51,434 nucleotides of DNA from Thraustochytrium aureum. Taxonomy: Eukaryota. Below the pieces are notes generated by a model. It made no database searches. It saw only the letters and a program-made list of their open reading frames with translations, and was not told the origin of the DNA. Shown in pieces: positions 10,154 through 41,775 of this stretch. The stretch covers positions 74,617 through 126,050 of the forward strand of contig BLSG01000152.1 of the NCBI GenBank assembly GCA_012862495.1. The letters are read 5' to 3'. The translations under genes were made by a program, and so were the position numbers. Position 1 is the stretch's first letter; each line of letters opens with the position of its first letter.

Positions 10154-11266
10154 CGTCGCCAGCGCCACGAACCCTGGTTGCTCAGGAGCCCTGCTGCCCA
10201 CCTGCGTGCCTGCCTGCGTGACAGCGAGGCTTATCGTCGAGCGCCCTCCACAGGCAAGCGGCGCGCACCGAGCGCCCGCACTATCGCGGCGCGTCTATCG
10301 CTTTCTTAGCTCTGTTGCGGGTCTGCCGGTCTCCACATTGGGCCAAGGCTCTGCATTGGGTACGAGAACAGGCTGAGAGCCCTAGCAGGGAGTGTTTTGG
10401 CCTGTTTTCAATTGATCTTGATCTTTCAAGAGTTGGGTACTAACTTGAAGACAGAATGAACCCAAGACCACAACGAGAGGCGAGAGCTCGAGCTCCGTAT
10501 GGTCGCCGCGCTCATGTGGTCGTGGGCGAGCTGAGTGAGTTTGAGAGTTCTGGCGCACTGTGCTCTGGATGGTCCAAGTTGCTGTGATCGACGACCAGCT
10601 GACGACAGTGTCATTTGTTTTTCATGTAGGGTTCCCGAGATGGCGCGAGGCGATCGACTGGCTGATGCGAACGACGATGGGCGCGAGGCCAGAGCGTTGG
10701 GGAGGGTAAGAATGAGCGCGTGGGGCGGGCTTGCGGCGCAGGGTTTTGAGGACTTGGAGGAGGCGAAGGCGGATCGGCCTGGGCAACCTGGGAGGAACTC
10801 GCTGCCTCTGTGCAGCGCTCTCTTGGAGCTCTTGCAAAACCTTGGGCTCGATCAATAGCAAGGCGCCCCCGTGGCGCAGCGAGACGTCCCTGTTGGTGCC
10901 GCCTGACCTACTCGNNNNNNNNNNNNNNNNNNNNNNNNNNNNNNNNNNNNNNNNNNNNNNNNNNNNNNNNNNNNNNNNNNNNNNNNNNNNNNNNNNNNNN
11001 NNNNNNNNNNNNNNNNNNNNNNNNNNNNNNNNNNNNNNNNNNNNNNNNNNNNNNNNNNNNNNNNNNNNNNNNNNNNNNNNNNNNNNNNNNNNNNNNNNNN
11101 NNNNNNNNNNNNNNNNNNNNNNNNNNNNNNNNNNNNNNNNNNNNNNNNNNNNNNNNNNNNNNNNNNNNNNNNNNNNNNNNNNNNNNNNNNNNNNNNNNNN
11201 NNNNNNNNNNNNNNNNNNNNNNNNNNNNNNNNNNNNNNNNNNNNNNNNNNNNNNNNNNNNNNNNNN

Positions 11267-14200
11267 GCTCGGAAACTGTGCCTCAAAGTCGTCCCCGAGC
11301 TTGTTGATCGGAACGAGGAGCTCCACTTGTAGCGACTTGCGACTCAGGCACTGCTCGCACTCCGCCTTGCGGGCGCGGTTGATGACAGGTTGGACTAGGT
11401 CGCGCAAGACTCGCCGACGACGCGCCTGCGCCAGCCACAGCCGGATGATGTTTCGCGACGCACTAGTCAAAGCGACGGGGCCAAACTTGGGCCGGCCGTC
11501 CTCGTTCTCGTCGTCGCTGGACACGTCCGGGTTGACGCTGCCCAGAATCTTGGTGAATTGGCTCTGCAAGTACGGTCTCGAGCGGCGCAAGGTGCGCGGC
11601 GTCAAAATCGACGGAAGCTGGGCCACCAACCACGGCCGGTTGTAGTCCAGGAAACGATGCCGAAAGCTCTCCGAGGTGAGCTTCTGGTTGAGCAGGTACG
11701 CCTCGTGGGACGCGCCCTTGATTTTCTCCAGCTCGTCCCAGTTTGGCGCGCCAAGGTCCTCGTCGTCGTCAAGGTTGGTGTGCCAAGCCGTGCTCTCGTG
11801 CCGCAACCGCCAGAGGCCAAACTTGTCCGCCGCAACTGCGGAGACTTTGCGCACGATGATGCATACGGCGATGCAGTAGGGCAGGAGGACGAGCATCGCA
11901 GGATCACCAAACGCGGCGTACTCGGCGCGGAGCATGATCTCAATCCCAAACACGAGCAACATGATACCTGTGGTGTACACAGACACCATAAAGTAGTACT
12001 GGGACGAAAAGCACATCTGGTCCACTGTCCGCATCGTCTCGTCGATGCACTCGTCCAAGCTGTCCTCGAACCCCTTCCAGCGGTTCTCGCGCTGCACATA
12101 GCGGTATCTGGTGTAAACGAGGTAGTCATAGATCTTCCAGCCATGGAAAAGCTCCTGGGACTGCAGAATGAACACGTCCGCGACGAGCTGAAACCCGTTG
12201 AGGATGAGAGCAAACCAGAGATAATACTCCATGTCTTGCATCCGAATCCCGTAAAGCTCGGGCAGCCCAATCTGGTCTCGGAAAACCATGAGCAGAACGA
12301 TCACAAAAGGAGTGTAGAACAGGTTGACGAGCTCGCCCGAGTAGCCCACGTAGGCGCCAAGGATGGGCTCCACAGTCTCAGTGCCCTCAAACTTCTCTTC
12401 AACGACCCGTTTGGCATCCTTGTCCTTGGCGAGCGTGCTTTCGAGCAGCTTCTTCTTGGCGGCCATGTTGTCCAGCATTTCGATTTTGGCGTCCAGCGAT
12501 CGCGCCGTCCGAATGCGAGCTTTGACCACGTCGACGGCCTCGCCGATATAGTGGAAGAGCAGTTCGAAGAAATGGTCTTTGCCCGGCCCGAAGAAAACCC
12601 GGTCGATGAGCATCAAACCGTACTCGATGACAAACCCAATGACCATGTCGAGAAAGTCGTCGGCGCCAAACGTGACGAGGCCCTCGATAATGCCCAAAGC
12701 AATAGCATGCGGAGTGACAAGAAGCGCCTCGGTCAGCATGTACTCGATGAAGAAGTCGAATACCACGGTGGCGACTTTCATGACCAAGATGAATGTCCAG
12801 ATCACATCGCCAAACCCCTCCCAGTACGAAAACTCGATCAGGAATACAAGCAGAATGGTCACGAGCAAGGTAGACAGCAGCATGGACGACCGCTTCCACA
12901 TCGTCGGCACCCAAACCGTGCGCTCTTGTCCGTGGTGGTCCCGCGTGTCTTCAAGCTCTTGCTCCTCGATCGAGACCAACCTCGGGATGAAAAGCTTGAC
13001 CCCCATCATGAGGATGTAAGCACTGAGGAACACAAAGCACATGCCAACCCGACCAGCGCGCGTGCTGTCCACCTCTTCGGGGATTACGCTGGCGTCGCCG
13101 TAGTGCTTGATCCATGATTCGAGCGTGTAGGGCTCTGAGAGGAAATCCGTCTTGTACGCCACCAACGCCTCCTGGACTTGCAAGTTCGTCATATTCTCGG
13201 CTCCCTCGATTGTCGGCGGGAACAGCAGCATCTGCGCCGTTCGAACGTGCGACTTGGCCTCCAAAAGCAGCCAAACCATGCCCAGCGCAAGCGACGTAGG
13301 AATCAGAGCAAGATAGACCCCGACAACCGGCGCCGGCGTGATGAGCGCCAGGTAGCTCATGAAGCGAAACTTGGGCGGCCGCTCCAAGTGCGTCGTAAGT
13401 CTGTTAACAGCCCAGAAGGCCGCCGTAATGACAACGATGCACATTCCGATGAACAGGAACAGGTTGATGAACACCTCGCGCTCAAAGGCAAACGCAATGA
13501 CCAGCTCCTCGTACCCAAGAGCGCGCATTTGGATCCCCAGCTCGTAGTCAGTGCGCTCCGTGTCGTGGTCAAAGTCCTCGAGCACAAGGTCCATCGAGAT
13601 GATGCGCTTCAAGTTGCGCGTGATCTGGTAGTACTTGATGTCGATCGTGACAGTCCGCGGCATGCACTGCCTCTCACACCCAGGCATCTCCTCCGCCGCG
13701 GAGCGGTCCACCTCTAGCGGAATCAACCAGTCAGATGATCCCTCTTCCACCAGAAGGTCAACGAGGCTGCCTCCTTTGAGGTACTGTTCAAAGTTGATCG
13801 GCTCCCAGGGTATTTCCAGGAGTGCGGTGCCTCCAGCGGCTTCGAACCATCGCGGCGTGAGGTCTTTGCTGCTCAAGTCCTCCTCAAAGTGGCACTGCAG
13901 TGCGTGGTGGCAGTAGTCCGAGATTGGCTCGCCAGAGAACGAGTACGGGTTGATCGTTGTAATGTCGTCGTAGTCTGGAAGTGGCGGGTACGCGTATCTG
14001 GCCCAGTCTGTCGGGATCCGCGCCCCAGACTCGTCAAACAGTGGCAGCTCGCACTTTTCCGACTCCATCATGTCCCAGATCGGGATGTGCGAGTCATACC
14101 CAGCGCAGCTCGAGAAGAACGGCCAGTACGGCAAAACAAGCTTCTCGAGGTTAAACTCCAAGTCGCGGTCGTCCTCGACGTCGAGATTCATCTCGTGGGC

Positions 14201-17200
14201 GGTTTCCCGATACTTTACGATCAAGTCCCGGACCCGTGCTGCATCAACATCGGGGGGCCCCCACCACTGCTGGTCCGTCGCCACGGACTCGTACCTGTCC
14301 AGAATGTGCGGGAAGGTCTCGTCCGCGGTACTGTTAAACCCCACTAGGACTCTGCCCTTGGCGGTCTCCGCGTACCGCTTGGGGAGATTCAGAGGGGCTG
14401 AAACGTCTGCGAGGAGGTCCCGTCGCAGGATCGCTGCGAAAAAGTGGTCCTGAACAACCTCCGTCTCGGCCGCGCTCACGATCGAGCTCAGTCGTCGCTT
14501 GGGAAACGACGCCGACTCTGTGTGGCGCTTTGAGCGTGCGCGCTCGGGACTGACGATTGTGACGGTGGCAGTGTTCCAAAACTGCGGCGCCGCCGAGGCT
14601 AAGAGGCCGTGCAAGAGGTGCACCTCGACTCGAAAGAGCACGTCTTCAAGGGCGACAAGCGAGACACCAAACTTGGAGTGCTTGTCCACGTCGTCGCTCT
14701 GAAACCAGGGCGACAAGTCGATCGGGCGAGAGCATGGGTAGACCTCGAGCTCGTCGCCAAGCTGGCAGCTCGGGTCGGCAAGGCACTCTTCTTGCGTGGA
14801 AATGCGAAGACGATTCCGCGACGCGTCGCACTTGCGCTCCTCGCACGTCGAGTTGGCCACGAAAATTGCCACGCGAAAGTGCTCGTCGTAGCGGACCGCG
14901 CTACTGATGTGCGAAAAGTCAAACTCGACGTTGGCTCGGCTCAGTCCCCGAAGGGCGTACCAGCCGCGTTCGCTCTCGCGCTCTGCCTCCTCGGCGGTAA
15001 ACTGATCGACACGGGCCTCGAATTGGCTCCATGAAACCAAGTTCTTTTGGAGGGTCCACCACGTCGACTCCATCTCTCTCTTCAGCGCGTCGCGATCCGC
15101 CGCAGTCCGCGGAACCGCAACCGTTGGACCATCGTACTCGGCCAGAACAAGGCTTGAAGCTGGTCGCTCCATCGAGAAAGCCTGGTTGGCCAGAAGGACG
15201 CTCACACGATCTCCAACGCAGTCGGCGTGCTCCTCTTCCAGATGCGCCAGAATCTCCGTGAGATTGCCTGTCTTCAGGAGCGTGTCGTCATTGAAGGGCA
15301 CGTCAACGCTACGCTCCCCAAAGAACACTCCGTCATTTGACACGTCGAGCTTGGCAAAAGCCACCGCGGCAACGCCATCGTGGCTCGCTCCGGCCGGGAG
15401 AAAGTGGGCGCGACCTGGGGCGCGGCACCGAACGCGGGTCTTTGACCGATACACGGCCGGTACGACAATAGCGTTCAAGCCGCCCACCGCAACGCCGTCG
15501 CGGCCAACGGGCGAGAACCGGCACACGAGCGTCGCCGTGTCGAAAAAGTTCCGCCCAACGACCGTGACGAGGGTGCCTCCGTCAGCTGGCACCATTGGTG
15601 GGCACACTCTTTGCGTGTGGACCGTGTCGTTTTTCCACGTCGGGGACGAGGCGGCCTCGTCCACGACCAAAATGCGCTCGATCACCTCCACTTCAGCCTC
15701 AATGAAGCCGGCCCTCCCCGAGCCCTCGTCGGAGCTGAAGTGCCGCGCCACCCCGGTGTGCGTCTCGTAGGAGAATTTGGGGTAGTAGACCTTGTCTTGT
15801 TGGAACCACCCGTACGACCCGTGCGAGCGGGTGCCGAGCTCCTTGTCGCACACCACGACGGCGTCGATTTCGCACTCCAGCAAGGAACCAGCTCCAGACG
15901 GGCTCGTTGTGCCTCGCGGGCACCGGTTGCGCGGGAGCTCAGCAGAGGCCGAACCAGGCGGGCAGTACCAGCCGATCGCGCACTGGTTCCGCTCTCGAAG
16001 GTAACCTTTCGTGCCGCGCTTGCAGTACCTGCCCAGAGGGCAGAGGTTTGAGGTCAAGTCAACCTCCTTCTCCCCCTCGAAGGAAAAGTAGCCAGCAGGC
16101 ACTTGGTGGTCAAACTGCGAGGACGAGTCCGTCCCAGCTGGGCAGATGTGGCCGGAAGGGCAGGCCGTCGTGTCTGACAAGTTTGACATCGCCTCGACGC
16201 CGCACACCCGAGTGGGGGGGCATGGCTCGCACAGAGAGATGTCGGAAGCTCCACGAAGCTGGTTCCAAGTTCCCACTGGACACAGTTTGCATGTGACGTC
16301 GTCCGCCATCGACCTGTACGTCCCGGGCGCGCAGATCGTGGGTTCGTAGGTTCCATAACCCTGGCACGTAAACCCAGCAGGGCAGGGTCGGCACGCAACG
16401 GTCGATTGGAGCGGGGCGTACGATCCTGGAAAGCAGAGAGTTGGGGCCACCGATCCCTCCCGGTGCGAAAAGGTGCCGATCGGGGCTTGCACCGGGGACA
16501 TCGGTCCCTGGAGGGCAGTAGTGGCCTGCATGGCAGGGCCCGGTCCCTGTAGCCGACGCACTCGCCCACTCGCAGTAAGACCCCTCCGTGCACGTTTGAG
16601 GAGCCACGCTGCCCTCTGGGACGGTGGATACCCAGTCGATCGTGATGTTATGCGCCACCCCGCCGAGGCAAAAACTGCCTGGCGGGCAAGGCAAAGGCCG
16701 CAACGCCGCAGCCTCAACCTGAAGGTAGGTCGGGGAGAGCGTTGAGGCCAGCTCGTCGAGGAGCTGAGCGCGAACAGCGCTGATGTTGTGCTCCAAGCAC
16801 CCAATGTGTTCCTGTGGCATAACGGGCTCGCCATCCTCAGACACAGGGAAGGCTTGGCAAGCGTCCGCCGCCGAGTCTCGAAACCCGGGACGGACAAGCG
16901 TGAGCGTACCCTCTGGGCAAAAGTATCCTGCGGGGCACTGAATGATTGGCGCCGACAGACCCTCCGAGTAGCACACGAAACCAGCTGGGCAAATTGCAGG
17001 CTCAACGCGGCCCCACCCGGGGCAAACATGCCCAACAGGGCAGATGGTGCAGTTCGCTTGGCCGCGGAATCGCTGATAGGTGCCTGGCAGGCACTCTGAC
17101 GGCTCCACGTTCCCGACACCTGGGCAATGGTGGCCCGCAAGGCACGGTACGGCCACAGAGCCACTGCCTGCCTCCTCTGCTGCGTTCAGCGGGCAAAAGT

Positions 17201-20200
17201 GGCCGGCGGGCAGGGCCCCGCGCCTTCGCCCGTAGTCGCACCTTGTGGGCAAAAGAACCCGTCGTTGCACCGCTGGGGCGTGCTAAAGTTGCCGTCCTGA
17301 GGCACCGCGCTGGCCACACCGCCGCGGCAATAGTAGCCGCGCGGGCAGGCCACCGGGCGCTCTGCACGAGTCCTTGTTCCAGAATTATGCGAAATAGCCC
17401 GCGCGAACCCTGTTGCCGGCGCAGCACGTCGGCGCATCTGCCAACGCTCGGCGCGAGAGCTGTGCAAAAACGTTGCTTCCGCTGTGACCTTGTCCACCAC
17501 CCATTCTACCTCTGCGCCGTCCGCCAAGTCAGCAGGGTCACTTGACTTCGTGCCTGGCCCGCAGACGTGGCCTGCGGGACAGGCCCGCAGAGGCTCACGG
17601 AGGCCAAGCTCCTCGCAGACAAACCCTGCGGGGCAAATCTCGGGCTTATACATGCCGAAATCTGGGCAGATGAACCCGATCGGGCACTGCAAGCACGTTG
17701 ATTGGCCAGCCCGCGGCTGGAAGCTTCCTGGAGCGCAAAGCGTAAAGTTTCCCTGAGCCCCCGAGGGAACCATCGTTCCGTTTGGTGCAGCGAGTTGCAT
17801 GCTCCTCGAGCACAGTCTTCCTGGCGGACACCACGGCTCGACCTCGACGAATCTGCCGCTCTCCGAAAAATCGACGCCGTTCAAAGTGACGTCGACTTGC
17901 ACGCGCTCGTGGTCCTGCAAGGGCGGTGACAGGCAGCTAACCAGCGACTTGGAGAGGAACAGGGCACGCACAGTAACCGAAGAGCCGAACCGGCACGCCA
18001 GCGAAGTCGTGTTCGCAAAGTGGCGCCCCGCTGCAAAGACCAGCTGCCCGCCCGAAGCTGCTACCCGGCGCGGCTTGACAGCGCTGACGCTGTGGTCCTT
18101 CACATAGCGGAATCGCGCCGAGGCGTTCCCGAAGAAATCAACGGCGTTGTTGGACACTTGGACGTCGACGGCACTCGCTGGGTCGCCCACTTTGCCAAGG
18201 TCCGCGGCCTGCGGAGCTCGGCAAACTATCTTGCCCGTGTTCACAAACTGCGCGGGAACGCGCTCACCCTCGGGGCCAAACCTGCAGGAAAGTGAGTTGG
18301 TGTCCGCAAACCCAACTCCGAAGACGGCCACGGCAGTTCCGCCGGCGAAAGCCGGCCCTTGCGTTGGCCAAATGCCCATCACACTGGGCGCCCTCTCATA
18401 GGTTACAAAGAAGCGGGCTTCGGCAGCCGAAGTGAAGTCGACTCCACCATTGACTGAGATGCGCACCGGGTGCCTACCGTCCTCGCCGGGAGGGGCAGTG
18501 CACTCTACCGCTGCAAGGCTGCTGCGGGAGATCCACTGAAAACGTGCCGTTGCGAGCCGCGCAGCTTGGGTGCTTGGGCCATTTCCAAAACGGCACCACA
18601 CGTCGTGATGCGGTGACAAAGCATGTTGCAAAACCACTTTGACTCGCGTGTTTCCCAGCCGTGAGAGAAGCAGAGGGTGAACCTCAAGGACCTCGACGGG
18701 CCTGTCGTACACAAAGCGCAATCCGCTGTCCACGAACGAGCCCTCCCCATTGCCTTCGATCACGCTGATTTGAAAGGACACAGACTGGGCCGTGTGGCCG
18801 CCAATGCCCTCTACAGAAGGCGAGAGGCAACGCACGGTTGTTGCATTCTCAACGCGAACGTTTGAGCTGCGCAGCGACCCAAAGCGACACACTACAGCAC
18901 TTGAGGCTCCTCGGGTGAGACCCAGGCCGCGAACAGTGACCCAGGTGCCTCCGCTGACCGGCCCACTTGGAGGATGGATCGAGTGCACCTCAGGCGCCTC
19001 TACCAGTTCGAGATGCACGGCAGCCGCGCCGTCGTCTGAAAACTCGAGGCCGTTGTTGCTTACCTCCACAAGAGCTGCGCCAGGCGCCAGGCGCGGGACG
19101 AGGCATCGCGCGAGGGACTCTGACACGTAGGATGCGGGGCTCACGGCGCCGCCGACGCGGCACGTCAAGTCCGCCCTAGGCGCGAAGCCAGACCCGGTGA
19201 CAGCGATGTGAAAGCCCCCAGCGGTGTATCCAACTTGCGGCCAAACTCGGTAGACGCGCGGCCGCTCCATGAACTCGTGGCCATGCAGCCGAGNNNNNNN
19301 NNNNNNNNNNNNNNNNNNNNNNNNNNNNNNNNNNNNNNNNNNNNNNNNNNNNNNNNNNNNNNNNNNNNNNNNNNNNNNNNNNNNNNNNNNNNNNNNNNNN
19401 NNNNNNNNNNNNNNNNNNNNNNNNNNNNNNNNNNNNNNNNNNNNNNNNNNNNNNNNNNNNNNNNNNNNNNNNNNNNNNNNNNNNNNNNNNNNNNNNNNNN
19501 NNNNNNNNNNNNNNNNNNNNNNNNNNNNNNNGTTGGTCAGCGGCCCGTTGCTTGAAAGGAGGCGCTCGCGGAGCCGGAGGCTTGAGCCGTCCCCAAACGC
19601 TGGGTCTGCGATCGCCCCCACAGAGTCTGGTAGTGAAACGTAAGTGAACGCTGCTGGCAGGCTCGCCAAGACAGCGCCGCCCCCACTTGAGGAGACGAAA
19701 ACGTCTACAGGCCCAGGTGCCTGGCCTGCGCTGGGGGGCAAAAGACACCTAATCGAGCGCGAAGAGCTGACATAAACACCGCGCGACTCGGTCCCACCAA
19801 AGCGGCACACCAGCGCCTCCAACGACATCCACGACTCGTCCACATCACTAGCAGGCGATATGACGAGCTCACTTGAACGCCGCCGCGCGTCGGCCCTGTC
19901 AGGGGCTTGATCGTCTCAACTCGGAGAACAGGAACACGAGTGAATGGAGCCCGCACGGCGTGCACCTCTTTGCCGTTGTTCGACACGCCGACAAATTGCA
20001 AGCCAGCGCCGAGCGCGGGAGGGGCCTCGCACTCCAAAAGCGTGTCAGAGAGGTAGGTCGCAGCAACCCAGTCCGAGCTACCAAATACGCAGGACAGTCC
20101 TCGCACATTGCGAAAGTGCCGTCCCCCCACTTGGACCACGGTCCCACCGAGCGTCGATCCGCGAGCAGGACGCACGACCCACGCTTCGGGCTCAAGGGCA

Positions 20201-23200
20201 AAGATAAACGCAGCGCTGTGCCCAGGGCGGTCTCGAGGAAGGTCTTCGCTCTCGGCAGCAATCATGACGTCAAACACAGCTTGGCCATCCGGGCTATTCG
20301 CAACAAGGTCGTGCACAGAAGGCGTCTCGCAAAGCAGGCGCGTGCTTGAAACAAAGACCGAGCTCTCCGACAGGACCAGCTTGCTGCCCCGTTTGAATGC
20401 ACACCGGTCGCTTGGAACAAAGTTGCGCCCAGTCATCGCGACGAGCGTGCCGCCCCGGCTGGAGCCGCTCTCTGGTTCAACGTTCCAAACCTCGGGCGAC
20501 GCCAGAAAACTGAATTTCGCGAGTGTCTGCACAGCGGAAATCTCGATTCCGTTTCCCCCTGTCACGCGCACAAGGACTGCTCCCTGTTCCTGGCTCTGCG
20601 ACCCAGTTCGAAGTATCGGCGGGCTTGGGCAGCTCAGCGAGGTCGAGTTGTGTACCATGGCGGCGGTACGCGCTTGGCCAAAAACGCACCATACGTCGGC
20701 GTCAGAAGCAAACCCAGTGCCACGCACAGTCAGCAGCGTCCCGCCATGCGCGGGGCCGCTCGCTGGGTAAATCGAATCAACTCGAGGGGCCTCTTCAAAC
20801 CTGAACTCAAGAGACCCTGTGGCGAAACTACCGTCCTGGAGGGACACGCGGAGCTCCGCGACGCCAGCGCGAGGAGCTTGCGGTGACCTACACTCCACCG
20901 CGTCATCGCCAAGCCATCGTATCGCCGTTGCCGAGCTAAAGCCGTCCGAAGTGAAGTGGCACCTGGCGCCGTTTCCAATTTGCTCCAGACCGGATCCAAA
21001 GACTTGGACCCATGTCCCTCCGTCCACAGTGCCACGACGCGGCTGGGCAGCAGAGATCTCCACCACTCGCTGGTACTGGAACGCGAGCGTGTTCCCCGAC
21101 AGAGCCACTTCTTGGCCGTCGACAAGTGCAACCACATCAACGCTAGCCAGCACCGGAGCGTGCCACGGCGGGGACGAGCACTGGATAGCCGCCGCCCCAG
21201 CCCCAGCCGTCTCACGAAGCAAGGGTTGGGCCGCTACGAGCCGCTCGAGCCCAGAACCGTCCTGGAATCGGCAAAAGCACGTGGAGAACCTTGCACCGTC
21301 CCCGCAAACCTGCTGCGCAATCGAGATATTCAGTAGAGTTCCGCCCAAGGCATAGGGCCCAACGAGGGGCCTCTCCGAGGCTATGTCGAGCGCTGGAAGT
21401 ACTTCAACAGACATGCCAGCCCCTCGGGAGACCTTGGTGGACTGGCCAGCCCAAAGCGAAACCGTCCAGTTTCCGGGAAGCGCGTGCCGAGGAACGAGAC
21501 ATGAAACGTGTGTCAGGTCTTGGGCGAGGACCCCAGGCACGCGCAGTTGGCCAATCTCGCACTCAATGCCAAACCGGTACTCGTCTGGGAGCTCCACCGC
21601 GGTTGTCCAAGGAAGCCGAACGGTGNNNNNNNNNNNNNNNNNNNNNNNNNNNNNNNNNNNNNNNNNNNNNNNNNNNNNNNNNNNNNNNNNNNNNNNNNNN
21701 NNNNNNNNNNNNNNNNNNNNNNNNNNNNNNNNNNNNNNNNNNNNNNNNNNNNNNNNNNNNNNNNNNNNNNNNNNNNNNNNNNNNNNNNNNNNNNNNNNNN
21801 NNNNNNNNNNNNNNNNNNNNNNNNNNNNNNNNNNNNNNNNNNNNNNNNNNNNNNNNNNNNNNNNNNNNNNNNNNNNNNNNNNNNNNNNNNNNNNNNNNNN
21901 NNNNNNNNNNNNNNNNNNNNNNNNNNNNNNNNNNNNNNNNNNNNNNNNNNNNNNNNNNNNNNNNNNNNNNNNNNNNNNNNNNNNNNNNNNNGAATGGCGC
22001 TCTCCTCCTCCGGATCCTCAAAGGAGCACTGGAGCCCCGCCGACGGCGCCCCTTCAAAAGCGCTGTTGAAGTTGTTTCCGAAAACGCGAATTGAGCTACC
22101 TTGGCCGTGGAAAACCACGTCCGGGGTCAGGCCGCGAACCTCCGGGACGGCGATCACAGCGACCTGGGGGCTCTCTGAAAGTGCCGACCAGTCCACGCCG
22201 TTCGTTGTCGTGAGCACGCGCACCGAGATGACGCCGTTTGATTCAAGCAGGTCGAACTGCGGAGCAAAGCACGCAACGCGACCGCTTGCATTGGGCCGTC
22301 CACACGGTGAACTTGGACGACTGTTGCCACGCTCTCGAGAGCACCCTGCGTCACAAAGTTGCACTTCGTGATGGAGCTCGCATTTGCGAATGGGCCGACC
22401 AAGACCTCCGCGCCGCCCGTTGCCGGGATAACAGCTGGAGAAGCAGACCTAACTTGGCTTGGTGCTTCGAGCCAGAACATTTGGTCTCCCTGAGCTCGAA
22501 CAAAATACGCGTCCCCCCAGCCCACTGCAACGAACACAAACTCGCTATGCGCGCTAAACTTGGGCACGGAGCACTGCACAGATCTTCCGCCACGCTCTAC
22601 GATCGCGGTCACCGGCTCGCTGGCCCCGAATTTGCAGTACAGCTCCGGGTGCGCGGGAAGTAAAGCTGCGCCAAGCTCGATGCTGACTTGGGTGCCTCCC
22701 CTTGAAGGTCCGCTTCGTGGCGAGAAAGAGGTCACCACAAGCGGTGGCACCACCTCGACGGTGGTGTTTGCGAAGTCAACTCCATTGTTGCTCACTTGGA
22801 TTGTCCAGGGCGTCACTCCTCCGGGCTCCTGGCCAACACTGGACGCAGTTACGCTGCAAATGATGTGCTGGCTTGAAACAAACCGAGCGGGGAAGCTGAC
22901 GTACTGACTCGTTGAAGCGCCTTGGACGCCGGCGCGGCAAGACAGTTCGGCAGAATCGCGCAGCCCGCTGCCAAACACGGAAACTGCGATTTCTGCGCCG
23001 TGCGGGATACGTGGTGGGGCTGTCCGCCCGACGAGAAGGACGGGCGCCTCGTACACAAAGGTGCACGTAGCAAGCACGCTTTCGTATGCGTCTTGTAGGA
23101 AGACTTGCGTGGTTGCGTGGTCAGTGTCCGCGCCAAGAACACGCCGCAGAGGCGGTGACACGCAAGAGGCCCGCCCGCTCGGGGACAGCACAGCAGGTAC

Positions 23201-29200: not shown

Positions 29201-32200
29201 GTCATCAAGTCCAGCGCCATGTAGACGGTGCAGACCACACCGGCTAGCTCACCGTCAGCAATCGGCCCAATCGCGACGCTCGTGCCTCCGGCCATGGGCC
29301 CACTACGCGGCGAGCCAATGACTAGATCGCCTGCTGCTGCTGGCGAACTAACGCGAAAAGAGATCGGCGCCGCAGAGATTTGCAATTCGCGCTCTCCAGC
29401 AAATACGGTAAAGTTGACTTGCCCGCCAGCAACAGCTCCTGAGCCGTCAGTCGCGGCGAACGGAACGATGCATTCTAAGGAATCGGAGCCTAGAAGTCGG
29501 GCGGGAACCAATGCCTCGCCAAATGCGCAAAACATCCGAACTCCGCGCCGAAACCCGGCACCAACTATCTTCACCTTCGTCCCAGGTTCGCCTTGAGCTG
29601 GCACTACGCGATCGAGCTTGAGCGGATGCAGAACCACGAGGTCAAGAGCACCCCTTGCTTGACCGCCCGAGGCGCTCGGCTCGTTCACGACAGCGACCGC
29701 AACCGGTTCTTCAGTTGCGCGTGAGGCCATTCTGGGGTGGAGCAAAGCGCGCGCGACGCCGAAACCCACATCGCCGGGGTGTCTGTGCAGCGGCTGGCAC
29801 TGCAAAATCGGCATGCGAGCTCGGGAGACGGCGCAAAGTTGGCCCCCGAAACAGCCAAGCGCGTACCACCTAGCGAGGAAACATACGGCTTGTCGAGACC
29901 TAGGACGACCGCCTGGGCAGATCGGATCAAGCTCGCGGGTCGCCCGTTATGGCGGGCAATCTCAAAATCAGCTCCATTCAAAGCGACCTGAATCGGGTCT
30001 TGAGCCACGACGATGGCAGGCGCCCTGGTCGGATTTTCCAACGGGTGGACCAAGCACCTAAGCGTTCTGCCGTCTTGCACGGCGCACGCGCTCAGAACGT
30101 CGCTCTGGCTGAATTTCACGAGGGGGGCTTGCGCGAATTGCAGCTCCTTCGTGAACGTCAAGGTTACGTTCGCTGACTCATCAGCGCAAACGCTTCGTGG
30201 AGCGAAGCTTTCCAGCTCCGGAAGCCCAACGAAAGAGAATAGCGGCACGCCGCTTGTGTCCACGCTGTGAGTGATCTCGCTCCCCAAGGCGATCGAGACG
30301 CGCACGTCCATCTCCTCCTCCATTGGCGGTGAATAGCACTCGAGCGAGGTGTCTGCGATACGCCTCGCCGGGACCGACTGAAGCGCAACCTGGTCCTCAG
30401 CATCGACTTGAACAAAAACGCACCAGTACTCTTCACCAGAGCCAAACCCAGTTCCGCGAACCAAGATCCGCGTCCCTCCAGATGTCGGGCCCATGTTGGG
30501 GCTTACCTCTGCAACGCGAACATGAGGCACGATTACAATCGCGACTGCGTTGTTGGAAATGTCTTGCCCATTCGAGGAGACGGCCACCGTGACGCTTGTG
30601 ACTCCCGCTTCTAGAATCTTGTCCGCAGGCGGTAGGATGCAAGACGCTTCCGTCTCGCTGGTGGCATGCCCTGACGTGGTAGCTCGTGAAACGCCCTGCA
30701 CAATCCAGTGGCATGTAAGAGATGATGTCCTGCCAAACCCCGCCCCGTGCAGCGCGACTGTTCCCCGAGAGATTCCAAAGTCCAAGTGCGAGAGCCGCGT
30801 GGGTTCGGCACGAAAGACTTCCGGCCTGGGCTGAAAGCGAAACGGGAACACGTCGAGTTCCACAAAGTCCTCGGCACTTGAGCCGGCTAGGCGAAACGCC
30901 AGAGACACAGAGGACTCTCGGGTCGAGCCTGCAGCGGGCGTCCGGCAAGCCCACTCTGCCACTTCCGCGCCGCCCGCGCTCAAAGGCTGGGCTTCTATGT
31001 CAACTGCGGGCGACGAAGAACTCTCGCCGAACCGAAACCTGCACACTGTTTCGATGCCGTCGAGGAGAATGCCGGCCGCCGTGCGGACTAAAAGGCGAGT
31101 TCCGCCCTCTATCGGCCCGTGGGCGGGCTCAAAGCTACTCGGCGACTGGGGAAGGTCCCGCAGCTCCACGTGCACGCCGACGGGAGAGAACGCGCCAGAC
31201 TCTGTAAAGGTCGAAATTTCGAGCTCGCCCGCTCTCAAACTCGTCGGCGGGATCGAGCAGAGCGCTGCCGCACTTGTCTCGTTGAAAGTCAGCGAAACTG
31301 GCCCTGGCTCACCGTCTCCTAGCCGGCAGAGCAGCTCCAGGCCCTGTCCCAGCGAGATTGCAAGCGCGCTGCTGACCTCGTCGAGGTCNNNNNNNNNNNN
31401 NNNNNNNNNNNNNNNNNNNNNNNNNNNNNNNNNNNNNNNNNNNNNNNNNNNNNNNNNNNNNNNNNNNNNNNNNNNNNNNNNNNNNNNNNNNNNNNNNNNN
31501 NNNNNNNNNNNNNNNNNNNNNNNNNNNNNNNNNNNNNNNNNNNNNNNNNNNNNNNGCGAGCACTCGCTCTTGAGCGGCGGAAAGCGGGGCCAATGTCGTC
31601 AACGGCAGGTAAAGTACTTCCTGCGGAGTTGCGAAATAATCTTCGCCGTTGAAAGACACCTCAAGCCCGGCCCTCGAGCCACCGGGGGCCAGCTCGAGCG
31701 ACGAATCCCAGTCAGGCACGTCACACTCGATGATCCCAGTCTGAAGATCGAGCCTGCCGCGCGCAGGTAGTGCGAGGGCGGTGTCATCAAACGAAACCTT
31801 GCAAAATGCCTCCGGTGCTACCGCGCCTTGCACAACGCGGTCCAAGTTCGTGACGGTGACCTGAACGGGCGAGTTTTTCGAGGGCCCAGCTAGTTTTGCT
31901 CTGCCTCCGTCAAGGAATACAGGTGAGGGGTGCAAGTAGAACGACGCTGCCACCGTATGCTCGAGAACCGCGTCCACATGGCCCTTAGAGTTCTCCACAC
32001 CTCGAGCAAGCTGCTCAGCCAGCGCTGCAGAAACGAAGCGAACTGCACAGCTTGCTCCAGTAAGTCCATCGTCTTTGAATCCCGACAAGAGGGAACGCGA
32101 AGAGCACGATGACGAAGCAGAGTCAAAGACACTCGAGAAAGAAAATTCGTCCGCGTCAATCCCCGTCCTGCACAAGAACCAGCACGCAAACTCGGTTTCC

Positions 32201-35200
32201 ACAGCGATGCCTTGCTCAAGACGAACTTGCAATCGAGTCTCGTGGCCCAAAAATGACGCGCGCTCCGGGTAGACAGCAATGAGGCCAGGGAGAGCATGAA
32301 AGGCCACCGTGGAGGATGAGGGCCACACATCGACGCCATTGCTCGACAAATGCAAACTTTGCACACCGGACTCCAGAGAGACATCTGGAGCTTGGCACAA
32401 CGCCGTCGAGCTGTTGAGGACGGTCGCTTCTGTGATCGCGGGGACTGTTTGGCCAAAGTGACAGTACCGAACGCTTTGCGCGGACAGGTTCAGGCCACTG
32501 ACAACAAGGTGCCCGGGCCAGAGCACTCGCGATGCTTGCCCGACGGGTAGCGAATGGGCGCTTGGGATGTGCACCGGCGGCTCCACAAAAGTATACCCGC
32601 CGTCGAGGGGCTCTGACCAGTCGAGTCCGCCATCGCAGGAGACTTGAAGCGTAACGCGCCCCGCCACGTCCTGGGGCGGGGCCACACACTCAAGGTTGCC
32701 GCGACTCGCTGAGAGGGCACTGACGACATCATCGCCGAATCTGCAACTACACATGGCACCGAACGCAGACCCGGACAAGTGCACCGCTGTGCCGCCAGAC
32801 ACCGGACCCACGTTGGGGCGAGCCGAGACGAGTGCCGGCGTCTGGGTGTAGGTGAAAGTAGCCACCGCGACGGGCCGAGAGGACGAGTGCAGCGAAATCT
32901 CGACAGAATGCGGTAGCGGTCGCTCTGAGAGCGGCACCGGGGGCGATACGCATGAAAACGTGTCAAACCCAAGCTGTCGCGCAGGAGCCCGCTCAGTGTC
33001 GCCGAACTGGCAGTTCTCGACTATCACGTCTGAAGAACCAAATACCGCAGTTGCGTTCAGGACCTTAAAAACCACCGTGGTGCCTCCGCTCGCCGGGCCG
33101 CCGAGCGGGCTGGCCTCAACAAGCCTCGAACCTGGCAGAACCGGCGAAACGACGGTGAGCGTTTGCGCGCCTTCGGGCAGCTCAAGCTCTGTGAAGCCGT
33201 CGTTGGTGAGCAAGCGGACACGGTGATCGCCGAGCGGCAGGTCGCGCGGCTCCAGAGCGCAAACGACCACAGATTCGCTGGCGTATACGGCAGGCACCAC
33301 GAACCCGTGCTCCCCGATGTGGCATTGCAACTCGGCAAGCGAGGTGAATCCTGATCCGCGCACTGCGACAAACGTGGAAACCGAGTAGTCCACAGCACCC
33401 GGTTCGAGCCCGAGCAGGACAGGCGCTTTGTATACCAAGAGAGCGTCAGCGAAGGGCTCGGACAACTCCTCCGCGCTGTTGGAGACGAAAGCCGTAACGT
33501 GATACGTCTTGCCCGCCTCTGGCTCGCGAAACGGTATCGCCTCGCACAAAACCGAATCGTCGTCGCCATCCAAGCGCGCGGGAACGGTCACTCGCTCGGT
33601 TCCAGGTTCTCCATCGGCCGCCACCGGCCAAGTAAAGTGGCATGAGAGCTCGTCGTTCTCAGCAAACCCTGACCCCCATAGTCGAACTGGGACGCTCGCT
33701 GCTGATATAGCGGTTGGCGAAACGCGGAAGAGGCTCGGACGCGCTGTGAAGGTAAACGCAACCCCGCCAGCACTCTCAGCAATGAATGAGCTGGCCTCAG
33801 GACCTTGAAGATCGTCGCCATCCCAAAACACGACGCTGACACGCGCAACGCCAGGGACGCCGTGAGCGGGCGTCTGGCACTCCAGCAGCGTGTCGTTGAG
33901 CACGTTTGCTGGCTGTGAAACTGCTTCAAACGCGGCGTGCCGCTCTTGGGCCACAAAGAGGCACCGGGGCAGCGGCGCGCCGTTGTGGACCGTTTCATAT
34001 TTCAGGAACCCTTGACCCTTGATGCGTACGGCAGTGCCGCCCTCCAGCCGCCCTAAGCTTGGCGTGATCCCAAAGAGATGCACAGTCGGCTCCGACTGCG
34101 TCTCTACGGCCTTCTCGGCGTTGGCGCTAATCAAGACGGTAACGTCTGACGGCGCCCAGTCGGCGCCGTTGAGCGACACGGAAACGACCCACTCGCTGCG
34201 GCCGAGCGTGCCAGCATTCTCCGGAACGAGGCAAGCCACCGACGTGTTGGAGACCAGCGTAGCAGGAGAATGCAGTTGAACCGGGTTTCCAAACCCACAG
34301 AGCATCGCCGGAGAAAACGCAAAGTTCGTCCCGAGAACCTCGAGAGCAGTGCCTGGAGCGGCGAGGCGCGGCGACACGCCGAGCAACGAATGTGAGGTGG
34401 CGTAGTAGACAAACCTGATCTGGCCGACGGACACAACGCGGCCTTCTACAGAAACAGAGACGTCAAACTCGACGCCAGACAGAGTCCGGACGTCTGGCGC
34501 GAGGCACGCCGCGTCAGCTGGGCCGAGAATGGCAAGCGGTGTCTCAACCCAGGTCGCCTCGCTCGACGCCCTGGTGAATCGGCAGCTCGAAGCGATCGAT
34601 GCATCTTGAAGGAGGGCATCAAAGCCGTCGCCCTGCAAGCGGATTTGCGTCCCCCCACTCGATGGACCGCTCAAGGGAGCGGCTGAATCAAGGACGAGCG
34701 TCGGGAGAAACGAGAAGGCTGTCGACGCGTTTGCCAAGCCTTGGGCAAAATCAAGCCCGTTCGGCGACCACGCGATATCGGCCCGGATCAACAGGTCTCG
34801 CCCAAAGCGAGCGCCAGAGCTTGCAGTTGCCGCACAGAGGTCGGAGAGCTTCGGGACCTGGCATATCGCGAATCCTGCATCCGAGTATTCACACGCCGTG
34901 ACGAAACGCCGCCCCTGCTCCCGAACTGTAACGGCACACCAGCACGGCTCCCGGGGGCGCCAAGCGCGCGGTCGGCCAAAATCGTTGCATTCGTCGCTTC
35001 ATGGCTCGGACCCATCCTTGGATCGATGCCTGTGACAAATGGCCTGTTCACGACGTCAATAGGCAATACGTTCGAAGCGAGGCCTTCAAATCGAAGCGCG
35101 ACTTGGACAGTAGCCGGCGCATCAATGGTATTTGGCAGAGAGCAGCGCGCTTCGCCACCGCCCGACACGGTGGCCTCGACGACTGCGAGGGGCGCGGAGG

Positions 35201-38200
35201 AGGACTGCGATGCTGTGAATACGCAGAGCACCGGGGCGTCTGGCGTCGGCGACGGCATGTGCTCTCCCTGAAGGCTGACCACGCCGCCTCGCCAACTCTT
35301 CGACGGAGCCGCGCTGAGCAAGCGAATGTCGTTCTTGATCTCAAAGAAGCAGGACTCCGGGCTCTCCGAGTTGCAGTGGAACTGCGTTCCGCCATTTGTG
35401 GAGATCGCGACGGCGAGCACTGTTCCAGCGTCACCGGCTGGGGAGAGGCATTCTACGACACTGTCAGAGCGAAGCCTCCCTTCCACTGGGCTCAGCGAAC
35501 CAAAGCGGCAGAAAGGGGCTGCACCGCGCGGAGGCGCCAGGTTAAAGCCGCGCAGCAAGATGCTTGCGCCTCCCGCCGGGCCGGCGGCTCTCGGTGAGAT
35601 CTCCACAACGTGCGGAGCTGCGATTGCGAGCAGTCTCGGCCGCGCAGAGCTGTCCGCGAGCACAGAGGACCCATCCTCACGCAGGAGGATGTCAAGCAAA
35701 CCGTCCCAGGCCCGATCCATTGGCGGAACAGCGCAAACTAGCGCACCTGTCGGCAAGCGCCTAGCGCTGACCCTGGCGCTGCCGACCATGCAATCCACGG
35801 CCTCGTGCATGTCGAATTCGGCGGAGTCTGTGCCTACCTGAATCTCTGCGCCGGAGTTGTACGCCCAGGATTGGGGCATCACGCTGAGGATCGACAGGGC
35901 TGGACGAACCTGGAGAGTGGCGAAGTCCTCCGAGAAGTCGATGCCGCCGTTCACACTGAGCCTCAAGTGAACATCGCTGACGTTGCCGGCAGCCACTTGC
36001 GAAAGGGTTGCTGCAGGAAGCCAGCAGGTGACGCCACCGTCGGCCGCGATCTGTGCGCGCAGGGGCTGGAGCACCTGCGCTCCAGCTCCAAAGGCTATTT
36101 GGCAAACCATGTCGCGCTCAGCCAAGGGGCCAAGCGCAACCGGAAGGTCCAGTAGGGAAACAGCAATATCCGCGCTGGCCCTCCGTGCCCCGAGAAACAG
36201 AGCGCTCGGGCGCACCGTGGCGCCCCGGAGAAGACCTGGAGGTGTCGCTTCGAAAACAGCGGAACCGATCTCGTCAATGCCGTTGTTGGTGAACGAAACT
36301 CTGAGGACGCCTGGCACGGCCATCGCAGGGTTGTGCACTCAAGCAGATTGGGGCCAACCAGAACCGCCGGTTGGCGAACCGCCGGCGACGCGCCTTCCGC
36401 TAGGGCGAAGACGCAGCTCAGCTCGCGCGCCTCAACGATGTGGTTGACGAAGAGCAGAAGTGGAGTCCCTCCCAGCGCGGGACCCGCTTGCGGGAGAATC
36501 CGCAACAAGTTTGCGGGTTCCGTAAAGTGGAACACGAGCCCTGATGCAGACCACCGGTCTCGCCCTGCCAATTTGATCGACACGGCGGCAACGCCCGGCG
36601 AGCCAGCGTCCGGAACATCGCAAACCAAAGAGCTCAAGGAGGCGTTCCACTCTGCCGGTGTCGGCGCGAGGTCCGAGAAACGGCACTCCGCTGCCTCGAG
36701 CAGCGCTGCGTGGGCTGCGTGCCCCTGTACAGATATGGAAGCGCGCAGACGGGGAGCCCCAGCCCCACGGTGCACAGACGCCACCATCGGAGAAATCGAC
36801 AGAAAGCTCGGCTCATCGGTAATGACGGTGAGCATCGCCGTTTCGACAGGTTCAGACCACTCGACTTGGTTCACAGTGACAGTAACAGCGACCGGGGCGC
36901 TTGTCGACAGCGAGGCGAACGCCGATGGGAGCTGGCACTTGATAAGGGTGGGGGAAACGAACGTGGCCTTGCTCAAAGCCCCACCGAAGGAGCAAGCCAG
37001 CTCGTCCGAGAAACGGAAGTTGTCCCCTCGCACAGAGACGAGGTCACCAGGTTGCGCTGCTGGCGGGTCGAGCGCTTCGACGCGCGGCGCAGCAGCGAAA
37101 GTAAAGTCGACGCTACCAAGAAACAAAGAGTCGTGCGAGTTGGCGTGCAGGGCGAGCGTGGCACTGCCGCCCCACCCCGATGCCCAAGTCGGCGTGTGGC
37201 ACCGAACGAGCATTTCAGAGACCCAAACTGCCCGAGTAACCTGCACTTGGTCGGTGGAGACACCTGAGAACACGCAGGTGAGGTCGACAGCGCTGAAGAG
37301 GCCCTCGCCACGAATCTGCACAAGGGTCCCGCCACTGAACGAGGCGACAGACGGATAAACTTGGTGGACGAGTGCGGCAGCGCGGTACATGTGCGTTTGT
37401 GCTCCTGGTGCCCACACGACGTCAACGCCGTTTAGCGTCGCTGCCAACAGCGCGCCCCCCTCGTGCGCACTTGCTGGCGAAGGGCAAACGNNNNNNNNNN
37501 NNNNNNNNNNNNNNNNNNNNNNNNNNNNNNNNNNNNNNNNNNNNNNNNNNNNNNNNNNNNNNNNNNNNNNNNNNNNNNNNNNNNCCACGCGCGTCGGCTG
37601 CGCACCTTCAGGCGGAAAAAGAGGCAGGCAGGGGCCTCTGCAATAGCTTGCCAGTCAATATGGAGGTCGCCTTGGCCGAGTCCGGGAGCGACTTGAAGCG
37701 CGAGCGAAATGGGAACCCCCCCAGAAAGTGGGCCGTGGTCCGGGGCTGCCGAACGAATACCCACGGGGCGATGTACGTGTAGTTGAGCTGGCCAACTATA
37801 GCCCCGTTCCATTCAACGCGGACCTCAACCGGCCCGGGCCCGCTTCGACTTGGCGGCACTGCGCATTTTAGTTCGCTGTCGTCTGAAGCGGTCCCCCAGA
37901 CGACTGGCGCTGCGCCAAACCGACAAGCAATACGTTTCCCCGCGAAATTGGCTCCGCGCAGAGTTAGGATGGTCCCGCCAGCTGTCGAGCCATGCACAGG
38001 AGAACCGGGGTTGCTTGCGTCAAGCACGATGTCTCCCGTAACTTCGTGCTCAAGCACTCCATTTGCGTAGTGCATTCGGTCCAGGGCGAGCCGGACCTCC
38101 AGGACTCCGGCCGCTGACATGCCGGGTGGAGTTGGACAGGAGATGAGCCCAGAGTTTAAAACGAGAGCAGTGGTGTACCGTCTCGGGTTGGAAAACTCGC

Positions 38201-40974
38201 ACTCGGGCAGCTCGTCGTCGAAAAAGCCAGAACCTTTGATGAAGATCGGCACGCCTCCAGCAAGGCCGCTGTGCTTAGGCTCAAGGCTGATGAGCGAGGG
38301 GGCGCGGCGGGCGTGAAGTGCGTAGCCCTGCGACCAAGTATCCACGCCATTGGTGATGCGCAGCAAAGGGAGGTCGGCTGCCGACGCTGCGACCAGCCCT
38401 TCAAAAGTGCAGCGGCCGTCAGCAGAGGAGGCCCACTCGACTGGAGAGCGCAGTCCGCTGCTACCGAGCTGACAGTACCACGCGCTTCCTCCGGCATGCG
38501 AGCCGTCGCCGGCGAGCTGCTCCGCAGCCAATGGGGCGGCGAGGCGCACGGCGAGGGTGCTGTTCTGGTCGCTACCAACAATAATTCGTCTCGGCCAGAC
38601 AGACTGGATCCGCGGCACTCGCTCGTGGTGGTCCTCGAGAACGACGTCGAGGAAGACCGTGGCGCTCTTTGCTCCTGCATCCCCAGTTGGGTCGGCTGGC
38701 ACAATGTCCACTTGAATGTGGTCGCCGCCATCAAAGTGCTTGACCCTGTCATACCCAATGCTCCTAAGAGCGGCGTTCACGTCGGATAGAGCGCCTGCAA
38801 AGCCGATAGCCTGCTCGTTGCTGGCCGAGCCGCTATGGAATTGCAGTCCCGCGCCAGCGCCGAGCGATATTTTTGCCATCCCGCTCGCGACGGTGAGGGA
38901 CACGTTAAAGACTGCGTCGCCGACCTCGTGGCCGCTATGGAGGTTTACATCCTCGATGACAAAACCAGCGATCCCAAGGGAGGCCGCCTCAGGAAGGAGG
39001 ACCACTGGCGCGTCGTTGACGGGCTCGACGACGATGGGGACAACAACCTTGTCCGTAAGCTGACGGCCCTGCTGGCCTGGCCCGCTCTCGTTGCCAAGAT
39101 CTGTTACAACGACCGTAAGCGCTTCTGGGCCCTGGAGCCTGTTCGCGTCCTGATCGCCCTCGTAGCGCACCACCTCTAGCACTTTGTTGAGTGCCCGCAG
39201 ACCGCCTTGAAGGGTCATCGCGCGGTCCCGCGTCCCGGATCCTTCGAGGACGGCGACATCTCTGGCAGCGCCGCCGGAAAGGCCTGGGAGGGAAATGGTG
39301 CCTGCGGCCACGAAGAGGGTGACCTGGAGGACGTCGGAGTCGTTGTCGTCAGGTAGCAGTGCAAGGTCGACGTCTGGGTCATGGAGAGTGATTCCGTAGA
39401 TTAGAATGTGCTCGTCCTCGTCGACGACCTGATAGTTGGGGATCGAGAGCGTCGGCGCGTCGTTCTCTGCTGCCACGCTGAGCCGAATAGCGCGCGACGC
39501 CGAGAGCGGGCCGCCAGCGCCGAGTCCGCCGTTGCCCTGGTCGTTGACGGTGACGCGGAGCGTGTCCTGCCCATTCCAGTTGAGGTGGCCGACGTAGACA
39601 AACTCGTGCAGCGCTTGGTTGATGGCCTCGAGGGTCCCCGTGAAAGTGACTACCTTGTCGCGGTCCCCGTTGCCCGTGGCAAAGGTGAGGCCGTCACTGC
39701 GTAGCAAGGTAACGACCCCGTTGTCAGCTTGCACGGTCACGGCCAAGGGCGCCTCGGGGCTCAGTTCAGCGTCCTTGTCGGACACCCGAAAGCCAACAAT
39801 GCTCTGCGCTCCATCCTCACGGGCGTAGAGCTCGAAGGCGTCCCCATCTTGAACTTGGCGGACCCGAATCTCGTCGTCTTCGGGCTCGAAGTGGACCTCT
39901 GGTGGCTGATTGTACGAGTGGTAAATGGATAGCAGCGCGCTACCGCCACCAAACCCGTCGAGGAGCTCTTGGGCAGTGATCCAGGCCATCTCGTCATTCA
40001 AACCAGAGAGCCGCCACTGCAGCTTGACAGTGTGCGTGCCCCCCGACAGACTCACGACCATTGTGGCTCTCGCGGCGTCGACGACGCGAACGAGCGCGTC
40101 CATCGGGGCGCCAGAGGCGTACATGACCTCGCCGTCGATCACGAGGCGCGTGGCCACCGCGCTCCACCGTTCCCATGTCCAAAAGTCCTGGTCTGGGCGC
40201 CCGACCTGACTGAGCGAGAGCGCAAAGGAGATCTGCACTACGTTTGAGGCCGAGACCAAGTGGAGCTCGCTCTGCGTGCCCGGGACGTCGCGCCAGGTGT
40301 CCCCTAGCATGCCGGGGTCCAGTTTGACCATGCCGAGTGGCTTGCTCAGCGAAGTGCGCGTGTGCTCGCCCTCGATGACGAGAGTTCGGCCTGCGGCGAA
40401 GCCGCCATAGGCGGAAGGCTGCGAGTACCAGAGTGGCACACCATCGCCCCACTTGCGCCACTGCAGCGAGACCGTGTGGCGCCCTGGCCCGAGCGGGGCT
40501 TTGAAGTCGCCCGCGAGCACGCCGGGCCGGAAGGTGCGCGACACCGTTCGGAAGAGCGCGCCGGACTCTCTGTAGGGGACCCCGTCTACCACAAGACGCG
40601 TGCCAACGAAGTCGCTGTGCTGCAGCGGGTGCCCGTTCGGGGCAAGCTGCGGGCGAACCGGGAGGCTGTAGAGCATGTACATCTCCCATGTGCGTGGGAG
40701 CGTGAACGTGAGCTGGCAGCCAGGGACATCGACCCAGTTCTGCGCTGCCGAGGCTAGCCGCGCTCCGCTCAGCGGCTGCGCGTAATAAAGGTACTTGTGG
40801 CGGGCCTTGACCACGACTGTCCTGCCGCCTCCCTGGCCCCCGTTCAGCTGGGGCCTAATGCTCCAGCTGCGCACACTAGTGCCCCAGCGCCGCCACTGCA
40901 GGGTGGTTGAGTGGTTGCCTGGGGCCAGCTCGGCCAGGGCTGGCCGAGCAGCGCGCTTCGCGTCTGCTCGAACG
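11267..40974 (-). CDS. Giant (~10,000 aa) cell-surface receptor/adhesin-like protein: LQWR beta repeats, cadherin-like repeats, IPT/TIG array, Cys-rich repeats, multipass TM domain. Both ends lie in N-gaps.
   Basis: Abutting minus-strand ORFs continue the same repeat sequence across single-base frame switches at ~37765, 36328, 34950, 29734, 26720, 24091, 22293, 19870, 17205 and 16494, and across six internal gaps. No intergenic-looking DNA is visible in between. Confidence 0.8.
11845..13510 (-). other. Domain: ~10-11 predicted transmembrane helices with a charged coiled-coil-like loop
   Basis: Hydrophobic runs from VFINLFLFIGMCIVVITAAFWAV to AMLVLLPYCIAVCIIV; internal charged stretch SLDAKIEMLDNMAAKKKLLESTLAKDKDAKRVVEEK. 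Confidence 0.8.
15860..17830 (-). other. Domain: Cys-rich GCC2/GCC3 (Ephrin_rec_like) repeats
   Basis: More than 20 CPxGxxC-type units, e.g. CAPGSFQPRAGQSTCLQCPIGFICP, CLPGTYQRFRGQANCTICPVGHVCP, CPRGTTSPSGAGSLLEC. Confidence 0.85.
17830..38610 (-). other. Domain: tandem IPT/TIG (E-set Ig-like) array, roughly 50-65 copies estimated from length
   Basis: Recurrent P-x-x-G-P-x-x-GGT-x-V-x-V-x-G-x-x-F...C-x-FG...C-x-[ST]P...V-S-x-NG-x-D-F...F-x-Y about every 100 aa. Confidence 0.9.
38640..39911 (-). other. Domain: three cadherin-like/bacterial Ig-like repeats
   Basis: NQPP...ED...VSDKD...FTGTLEAINQAL...NWNGQDTLRVTVNDQGNGG...ENDAP; second unit ends PVNDAP; third contains FAGALSDVNAAL. Confidence 0.75.
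39930..40974 (-). other. Domain: three N-terminal beta-rich repeats ending in G-x-H-T-x-x-L-Q-W-R (first partial)
   Basis: PGNHSTTLQWRRWG, PGRHTVSLQWRKWG, GGTHTVKLQWRLSG. The two complete repeats also carry WxDVPG and TRLV[VI]DG. Confidence 0.7.
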
Positions 40975-41748: not shown

Positions 41749-41775
41749 GATTGTTGATTGATTGATTGATTGTTG
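41749..41775. repeat. (ATTG)n microsatellite upstream of RMC1
   Basis: gattgttgattgattgattgattgttg read directly. Confidence 0.85.

Follow-up and report, generated by a model that had tools for sequence, protein, structure and literature searches.

The stretch of DNA analysed here (the window) comprises 51,434 nucleotides of contig BLSG01000152.1 of Thraustochytrium aureum and carries, on the minus strand across positions 11267..40974, one giant gene that is fragmented only in the assembly, a conclusion held with near certainty. For its product we propose a tentative reading with a probability of roughly 45%: a rod of ~9,900 residues with a C1q/TNF-like head and an 11-helix anchor of the TMEM16/OSCA/TMC type would act as a tether on flagellated cells and answer contact or drag with a flux of ions or the scrambling of lipids.

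Gene model and assembly breaks

The window consists of GC-rich eukaryotic DNA and is interrupted by 14 runs of N. A codon-model path divided the coding track into 14 segments, and three-frame views placed the frame switches within the repeat units of the giant gene. An earlier note, made by a model from the sequence alone, had attributed these switches to assembly error within a single gene. The breaks were checked against contigs from four public runs of three studies, out of nine runs listed as covering part of the gene, over positions 10300-27200 and 26500-43000. The contigs differ from the window by one base at 12 sites (16494, 17206, 19866, 22295, 24086, 26710, 29719, 34949, 36329, 37613, 37757 and 40940), so that the one-base nature of the breaks stands and their number rises from the ten first counted. 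Five breaks are supported by runs of two studies and seven by a single run, several at a depth below 5, and run X1 among the contig sources may be the source of the window itself. Runs X2 and X3 are RNA by guess only, and their cover of the gene carries no weight here as a sign of expression. Four of the six inner N-gaps are bridged by contigs with 3, 41, 37 and 28 bases; the three bridges with readable letters (all except the 41-base one) contain no stops by eye.

Correction and translation of the frameshift sites, which the earlier note had suggested as a check, were performed with the one-base edits entered as N. The corrected open reading frame (ORF) consists of three blocks of 6,109, 698 and 2,675 amino acids (aa) between the two unbridged gaps (19294-19531 and 21626-21991), in total 9,482 aa with 0 stops. 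When the same number of indels was placed randomly in the largest block, at least 31 stops appeared (200 trials, median 71), compared with none at the read-supported positions. Most of the breaks cannot be put down to homopolymer slips, the longest run being 1-4 nt. Nor are the frame switches due to short introns, since the contigs differ by one base at those sites. The reading frame of the SPT5 gene (48631-51432, minus strand) also switches twice, near 50340-50600, which indicates that the assembly is error-prone in this window. A pseudogene or several separate genes would be compatible with the frame breaks, the two unbridged gaps and the many database relatives that are partial; this explanation is very improbable, given that all 12 breaks vanish in the contigs, that 9,482 codons run without an in-frame stop, that SPT5 is broken alike and that relatives hold the whole architecture in single ORFs.

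Both ends of the coding track are edges of N-gaps, with six further N-gaps inside, and the start codon, signal peptide and C-terminus therefore lie outside the available sequence. The gene was described earlier as intronless, which holds for the sequenced 28 kb only, while the end coordinates given for it are these gap edges. Judged from homologues, the N-terminus lacks about 125-165 residues and the C-terminus 146-178; with these and the inner gaps included, the protein is estimated at ~9,900 aa. Residue 1-2 of the window protein aligns to residue 166 of relative P0021 and residue 125 of P0025, whose N-termini contain signal-peptide-like stretches (by eye). The domain order proposed before was recovered by Pfam, a local IPT profile and the structure model, and is as follows from N- to C-terminus.

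11267..40974, minus strand: giant ORF, sequenced part; with 12 one-base corrections it reads 9,482 aa in three blocks free of stops
40975..41707, minus strand: N-gap expected to hold the start codon, signal peptide, first ~125-165 aa and part of a promoter probably shared with the divergent RMC1-like gene
39909..40974, minus strand: three 'LQWR' repeats, the first truncated by the gap; predicted jelly rolls forming a single-chain C1q/TNF-type pseudo-trimer
38622..39908, minus strand: three bacterial-cadherin-like (Cadherin_4/VCBS-type) repeats, by a weak PF17803 match and likeness to bacterial proteins
17834..38621, minus strand: rod of about 55-65 IPT/TIG (Ig-fold) domains, by Pfam and the local profile
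15847..17833, minus strand: Cys-rich repeats of Ephrin_rec_like (GCC2_GCC3) type, 53 Cys in 670 aa, by Pfam
15227..15646, minus strand: single additional IPT/TIG domain, by the local profile (59 bits)
13493..14995, minus strand: conserved juxtamembrane ectodomain, beta-rich, with conserved cysteines
11819..13480, minus strand: membrane domain of 11 predicted transmembrane helices (TM0 and TM1-10) with weak whole-domain TMEM16/OSCA/TMC likeness
11267..11818, minus strand: cytoplasmic tail, sequenced part, with a conserved helical block, an acidic patch and the first CxxC of a predicted zinc finger
10915..11266, minus strand: N-gap expected to hold most of the remaining C-terminus

Extracellular rod and head

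Of the 17 pieces scanned with Pfam, 11 contain IPT/TIG domains and three contain Ephrin_rec_like (PF07699) repeats. With the local IPT profile, 54 repeats score more than 10 bits, 59 more than 5 and 63 more than 0, against a maximum of 5.1 bits on the reversed sequence, and the repeat spacing suggests ~65 domains. One Ig-fold domain measures 3.5-4 nm in an extended rod. The extended IPT array would thus reach 0.2-0.25 micrometre, other parts being extra, and the surface rod as a whole is likely to be ~0.2-0.3 micrometre long. Tandem IPT/TIG domains are shared with fibrocystin/PKHD1L1, plexins and the Tgr proteins of Dictyostelium, but the array found here is several times longer. Those proteins are single-pass and contain other domains, e.g. 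G8, PA14, PbH1 or Sema. In contrast, the giant protein has 11 helices, and G8, PA14, PbH1 and Sema were not found by Pfam.

The Cadherin_4 (PF17803) match in the window was weak and below the cut-off (E 0.0046), while the domain is precomputed on P0021 and P0025. The cadherin-like repeats are ~30% identical to bacterial repeat proteins (Calothrix, Richelia and others), and this module may be of bacterial origin.

For the LQWR repeats of the head, the structure model predicts a jelly-roll fold of the C1q/TNF type with three-lobed packing. The best structural matches are engineered single-chain constructs at 8-12% identity; Pfam scans gave no C1q/TNF match in the head and a PDB sequence search with this region returned nothing meaningful. 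On the basis of the model, the head is quite probably C1q/TNF-like. The predicted jelly-roll fold is that of C1q, cerebellin, adiponectin, BclA-type proteins and phage fibre tips, whose three-lobed packing it may share; the head differs from these in its three tandem copies within a natural chain. The juxtamembrane ectodomain matched no family in Pfam and was barely covered by the fold searches.

Membrane domain and cytoplasmic tail

The structure model contains 11 membrane-length helices, in agreement with the ~10-11 counted earlier, and a predicted topology with the N-terminus outside and the C-terminus inside, the sidedness following from the ectodomain. The loop after the first helix has ~19 residues in the model, the TM3-4, TM4-5 and TM5-6 links are short, and conserved buried acidic residues are present, with acids in TM6-8. 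In the fold search, long collinear alignments from the first to the last helix at a root-mean-square deviation (rmsd) below 10 A came from the TMEM16/OSCA/TMC superfamily only; their Z was low and their rmsd high. OSCA1.2 aligns from its residue 2 to model residue 505, and the end points suit an included TM0 for OSCA and an excluded one for TMEM16. An extra helix TM0, an extracellular N-terminus and 11 helices define the OSCA-type topology (PMC6235563), and these features are seen in the model. Compared by motif spacing only with the anoctamin-type Ca2+ site, the Q-x3-D of TM8 fits, while the conserved acids of TM6 and TM7 are spaced differently.

Sequence searches found no link to this superfamily. 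The Pfam Anoctamin, RSN1_7TM and TMC domains gave 0/52 and 0/22 matches, PDB searches with two membrane-domain profiles gave nothing meaningful, and a Foldseek search of the membrane domain returned no match. The low Z, the high rmsd and these searches would be expected of a new fold unrelated to TMEM16/OSCA/TMC, for example a transporter or flippase serving the ectodomain, with the likeness reflecting a common helical arrangement. Such a fold is improbable in view of the whole-length alignments to one superfamily only and of the end points that suit the TM0 pattern. A TMEM16/OSCA/TMC fold is the moderately favoured prediction of the model, and it lends weak structural support to the channel- or receptor-like domain suggested before. 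At most, the giant protein would be a new branch of the superfamily, outside the described TMEM16, OSCA and TMC families.

The predicted domain resembles TMEM16/anoctamin, OSCA/TMEM63 and TMC proteins in an OSCA-like TM0, the orientation, the short links, the acidic residues in TM6-8 and a putative 10-helix core, but it differs in the lack of a Pfam or PDB sequence match, in its weak scores and in an ectodomain of ~8,900 residues, the like of which members lack in the literature covered. Most members of the superfamily are homodimers, and TMC1 is pulled via separate tip-link cadherins. Polycystin-1 (PKD1) and adhesion GPCRs resemble the giant protein in their design, a long Ig-type ectodomain on a multipass domain. 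PKD1 has 11 helices, a PLAT domain after the first helix, REJ/GAIN regions and a TRP-type six-helix channel domain. Here, unlike in polycystin-1, Pfam found no PLAT (the corresponding loop being ~19 residues), REJ, GAIN or PKD_channel match, and the repeats are IPT instead of PKD. Polycystin, TRP, GPCR and meckelin chains were absent from the whole-domain fold matches listed, which excludes nothing.

The tail is 64-74% identical to four homologues over its last 150 aa. The predicted zinc finger is cut in the window after the first CxxC and completed in the homologues. In the tails of P0003, P0008, P0056 and P0202, the predicted zinc finger is surrounded by three copies of a ~20-residue motif, in which Gly-Pro-Val precedes an amphipathic helix containing Trp and Ala-Arg; an acidic patch stands before every copy. 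As a guess, this motif could bind calmodulin or the cytoskeleton.

Protein family and distribution

With the C-terminal 1,328 aa as query, 19 proteins of 2,325-5,000 aa were matched, the top ten of which share 36-44% identity with it across 92-94% of its length and include Phytophthora cactorum and Aphanomyces stellatus; partial matches came from Pythium and Aureococcus. A scan against 1.84 billion representatives yielded 1,206 clusters at E 1e-3, 713 at 1e-10 and 339 at 1e-30. The best 150 of the 1,206 clusters were used for the family analysis and names were looked up for 30 proteins, most of which carry no informative name. Named relatives include those from Albugo (7,926 aa), Aphanomyces invadans (7,478 aa), Cantina (a transcript of 5,327 aa), Odontella, Andalucia and Ancoracysta; the protein of the jakobid Andalucia shows 28% identity over 996 aa (E 2e-108). 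Judged from these sequence matches, the family reaches beyond the stramenopiles and is widespread in protists.

In P0078 (7,524 aa) and P0076 (7,061 aa) a single ORF encodes the head, a cadherin repeat, the IPT and Cys repeats, the ectodomain, the membrane domain and the tail, and the start of head, cadherin and IPT repeats is also present in P0021, P0024 and P0025. Of the stramenopiles and alveolates, in which full-length orthologues were to be sought, the former have full-length relatives, and no alveolate is among the named matches; the long extracellular rod joined to a multipass domain is borne out in the window and in relatives. The number of IPT repeats varies from 25 to 56 in long relatives, and conservation is far higher in the membrane domain and tail than along the rod.

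In a midpoint-rooted tree of 136 membrane domains, 14 of the 150 extracted having been removed for gaps, the giant protein grouped with oomycetes, P0076 and P0078, most of this clade having the zinc-finger tail, while a second stramenopile clade included Cantina, Odontella and Pythium. This placement makes a stramenopile the most likely source of the window. Five relatives of ~2,400-2,700 aa (P0210, P0132, P0016, P0163 and P0130), some possibly partial, keep the membrane domain and have no detectable IPT repeats. At least two of them end in a coiled-coil-like tail instead of a zinc finger, and P0210 is a paralogue from the diatom Odontella.

No published description of the family was found in literature searches, whose coverage left out subscription journals. 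Members from oomycetes and other protists are recorded in databases as 'IPT/TIG domain-containing protein' or 'hypothetical protein', labels that reflect one repeat only, and the records are often partial. The family is hidden because assemblies and length-limited databases cut the giant protein into 'IPT/TIG-containing' fragments.

Flagellated cells and proposed mechanism

According to PMC6264045, five assemblies of non-flagellate downy mildews have no IPT/TIG domains, and four zoosporic species, one of them a biotroph, have 6, 9, 1 and 11, a pattern that is domain-level and represents one loss event. In the tables of PMC8360494, a single protein of the zoospore column accounts for all 28 TIG rows, again at domain level. 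These observations suggest that a role on flagellated cells is fairly likely. Against it weigh the searches in which IPT/TIG annotation was absent: the zoospore membrane proteome tables and supplement of PMC12223298, the supplements of PMC3471859 and PMC5322657, and the main text of a zoospore vesicle preprint, searched by term. In the three published data sets the protein could be listed as uncharacterised.

We infer a role in adhesion or mechanosensing, and the protein is predicted to work like a tethered receptor-channel. The tip of the head would bind a surface or glycan, and the rod would transmit pulling or drag forces, by way of the Cys-rich stalk and the juxtamembrane domain, to TM0 and the TM4/TM6 groove. 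This groove would gate and let ions or lipids pass, Ca2+ at TM6-8 may modulate this step, and the zinc-finger tail would couple to the cytoskeleton. Given one gene, the head, the fold and a role on flagellated cells, tether-gated conduction is somewhat favoured. A broader version is doubtful: an ancient pan-protist branch of TMEM16/OSCA/TMC with its own tip link, in which a pseudo-trimer and ~60 Ig-fold domains fused to a channel would form a touch or flow sensor of flagellates that was lost with flagella.

The same flagella-linked loss pattern would be expected if the protein were a structural hair or tether of flagellated cells, e.g. a fine non-tubular flagellar hair, with the multipass domain as a non-conducting anchor to the axoneme or cortex. 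The rod architecture, the varying number of IPT repeats and the lack of any sequence match to a channel family in the searches made agree with this. Fine hairs on zoospore flagella are described in PMC7718214, and plentiful thin short hairs on the posterior flagellum of P. parasitica zoospores in PMC9068220, of which the sections covered name no protein and give no hair length. However, the conservation of membrane domain and tail above that of the rod, with buried acids kept, is more than an anchor needs, and the diatom paralogue P0210 keeps the membrane domain without detectable IPT repeats, so that a purely structural hair is unlikely.

Slightly less likely still is a contact receptor similar to adhesion GPCRs or to cysteine repeat modular proteins (CRMPs), whose tail would signal exocytosis (encystment vesicles, extrusomes) or cell fusion and which would not be a channel. 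The conserved tail with its predicted zinc finger and the Ephrin_rec_like repeats beside a multipass domain, the layout of CRMPs, speak for it; in the sections of PMC9670195 covered, surface sensing is proposed for CRMPs and they control contact-triggered exocytosis. According to the same sections, CRMPs are built with 5 or 9 helices and carry MAR/Kringle or GAIN-like parts, whereas 11 helices and no such Pfam match were found here, the IPT array and C1q-like head are particular to the giant protein, and neither an alveolate among the named matches nor a GPCR among the whole-domain structural matches was seen. The comparison with CRMPs and fibrocystin made in the earlier note thus holds for the layout and fails for the Kringle, MAR, G8 and PA14 domains. 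By the features tested, the giant protein is not a member of the CRMPs, polycystin-1 or fibrocystin.

Neighbouring genes and significance

The RMC1-like gene (41770-45012, plus strand) runs divergently from the giant gene, and its N- and C-terminal Pfam domains fall on two separate ORFs. The THO complex subunit 1 (THOC1) gene (7526-10294, minus strand) lies directly downstream. A UPF1-like superfamily-1 helicase (AAA_11/AAA_12) is encoded at 45164-48280 on the minus strand and contains an N-gap (47745-47926) with duplicated flanks, as is typical of a scaffolding artefact. Positions 10857-10914 hold a short multi-copy element, to which alone dozens of contigs in all four runs match with a summed depth in the hundreds, and 6016-6307 holds a 149-base unit in two tandem copies that are 91% alike.

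A natural single-chain C1q/TNF-like trimer would be unusual in itself. If the predicted fold is true, the family would be an unrecognised branch of the superfamily that includes the hearing channel TMC1, with tether and channel in one polypeptide. Contact sensing by zoospores and flagellates and the make-up of fine flagellar hairs are open questions in the literature covered, and this family offers a single conserved candidate for both.
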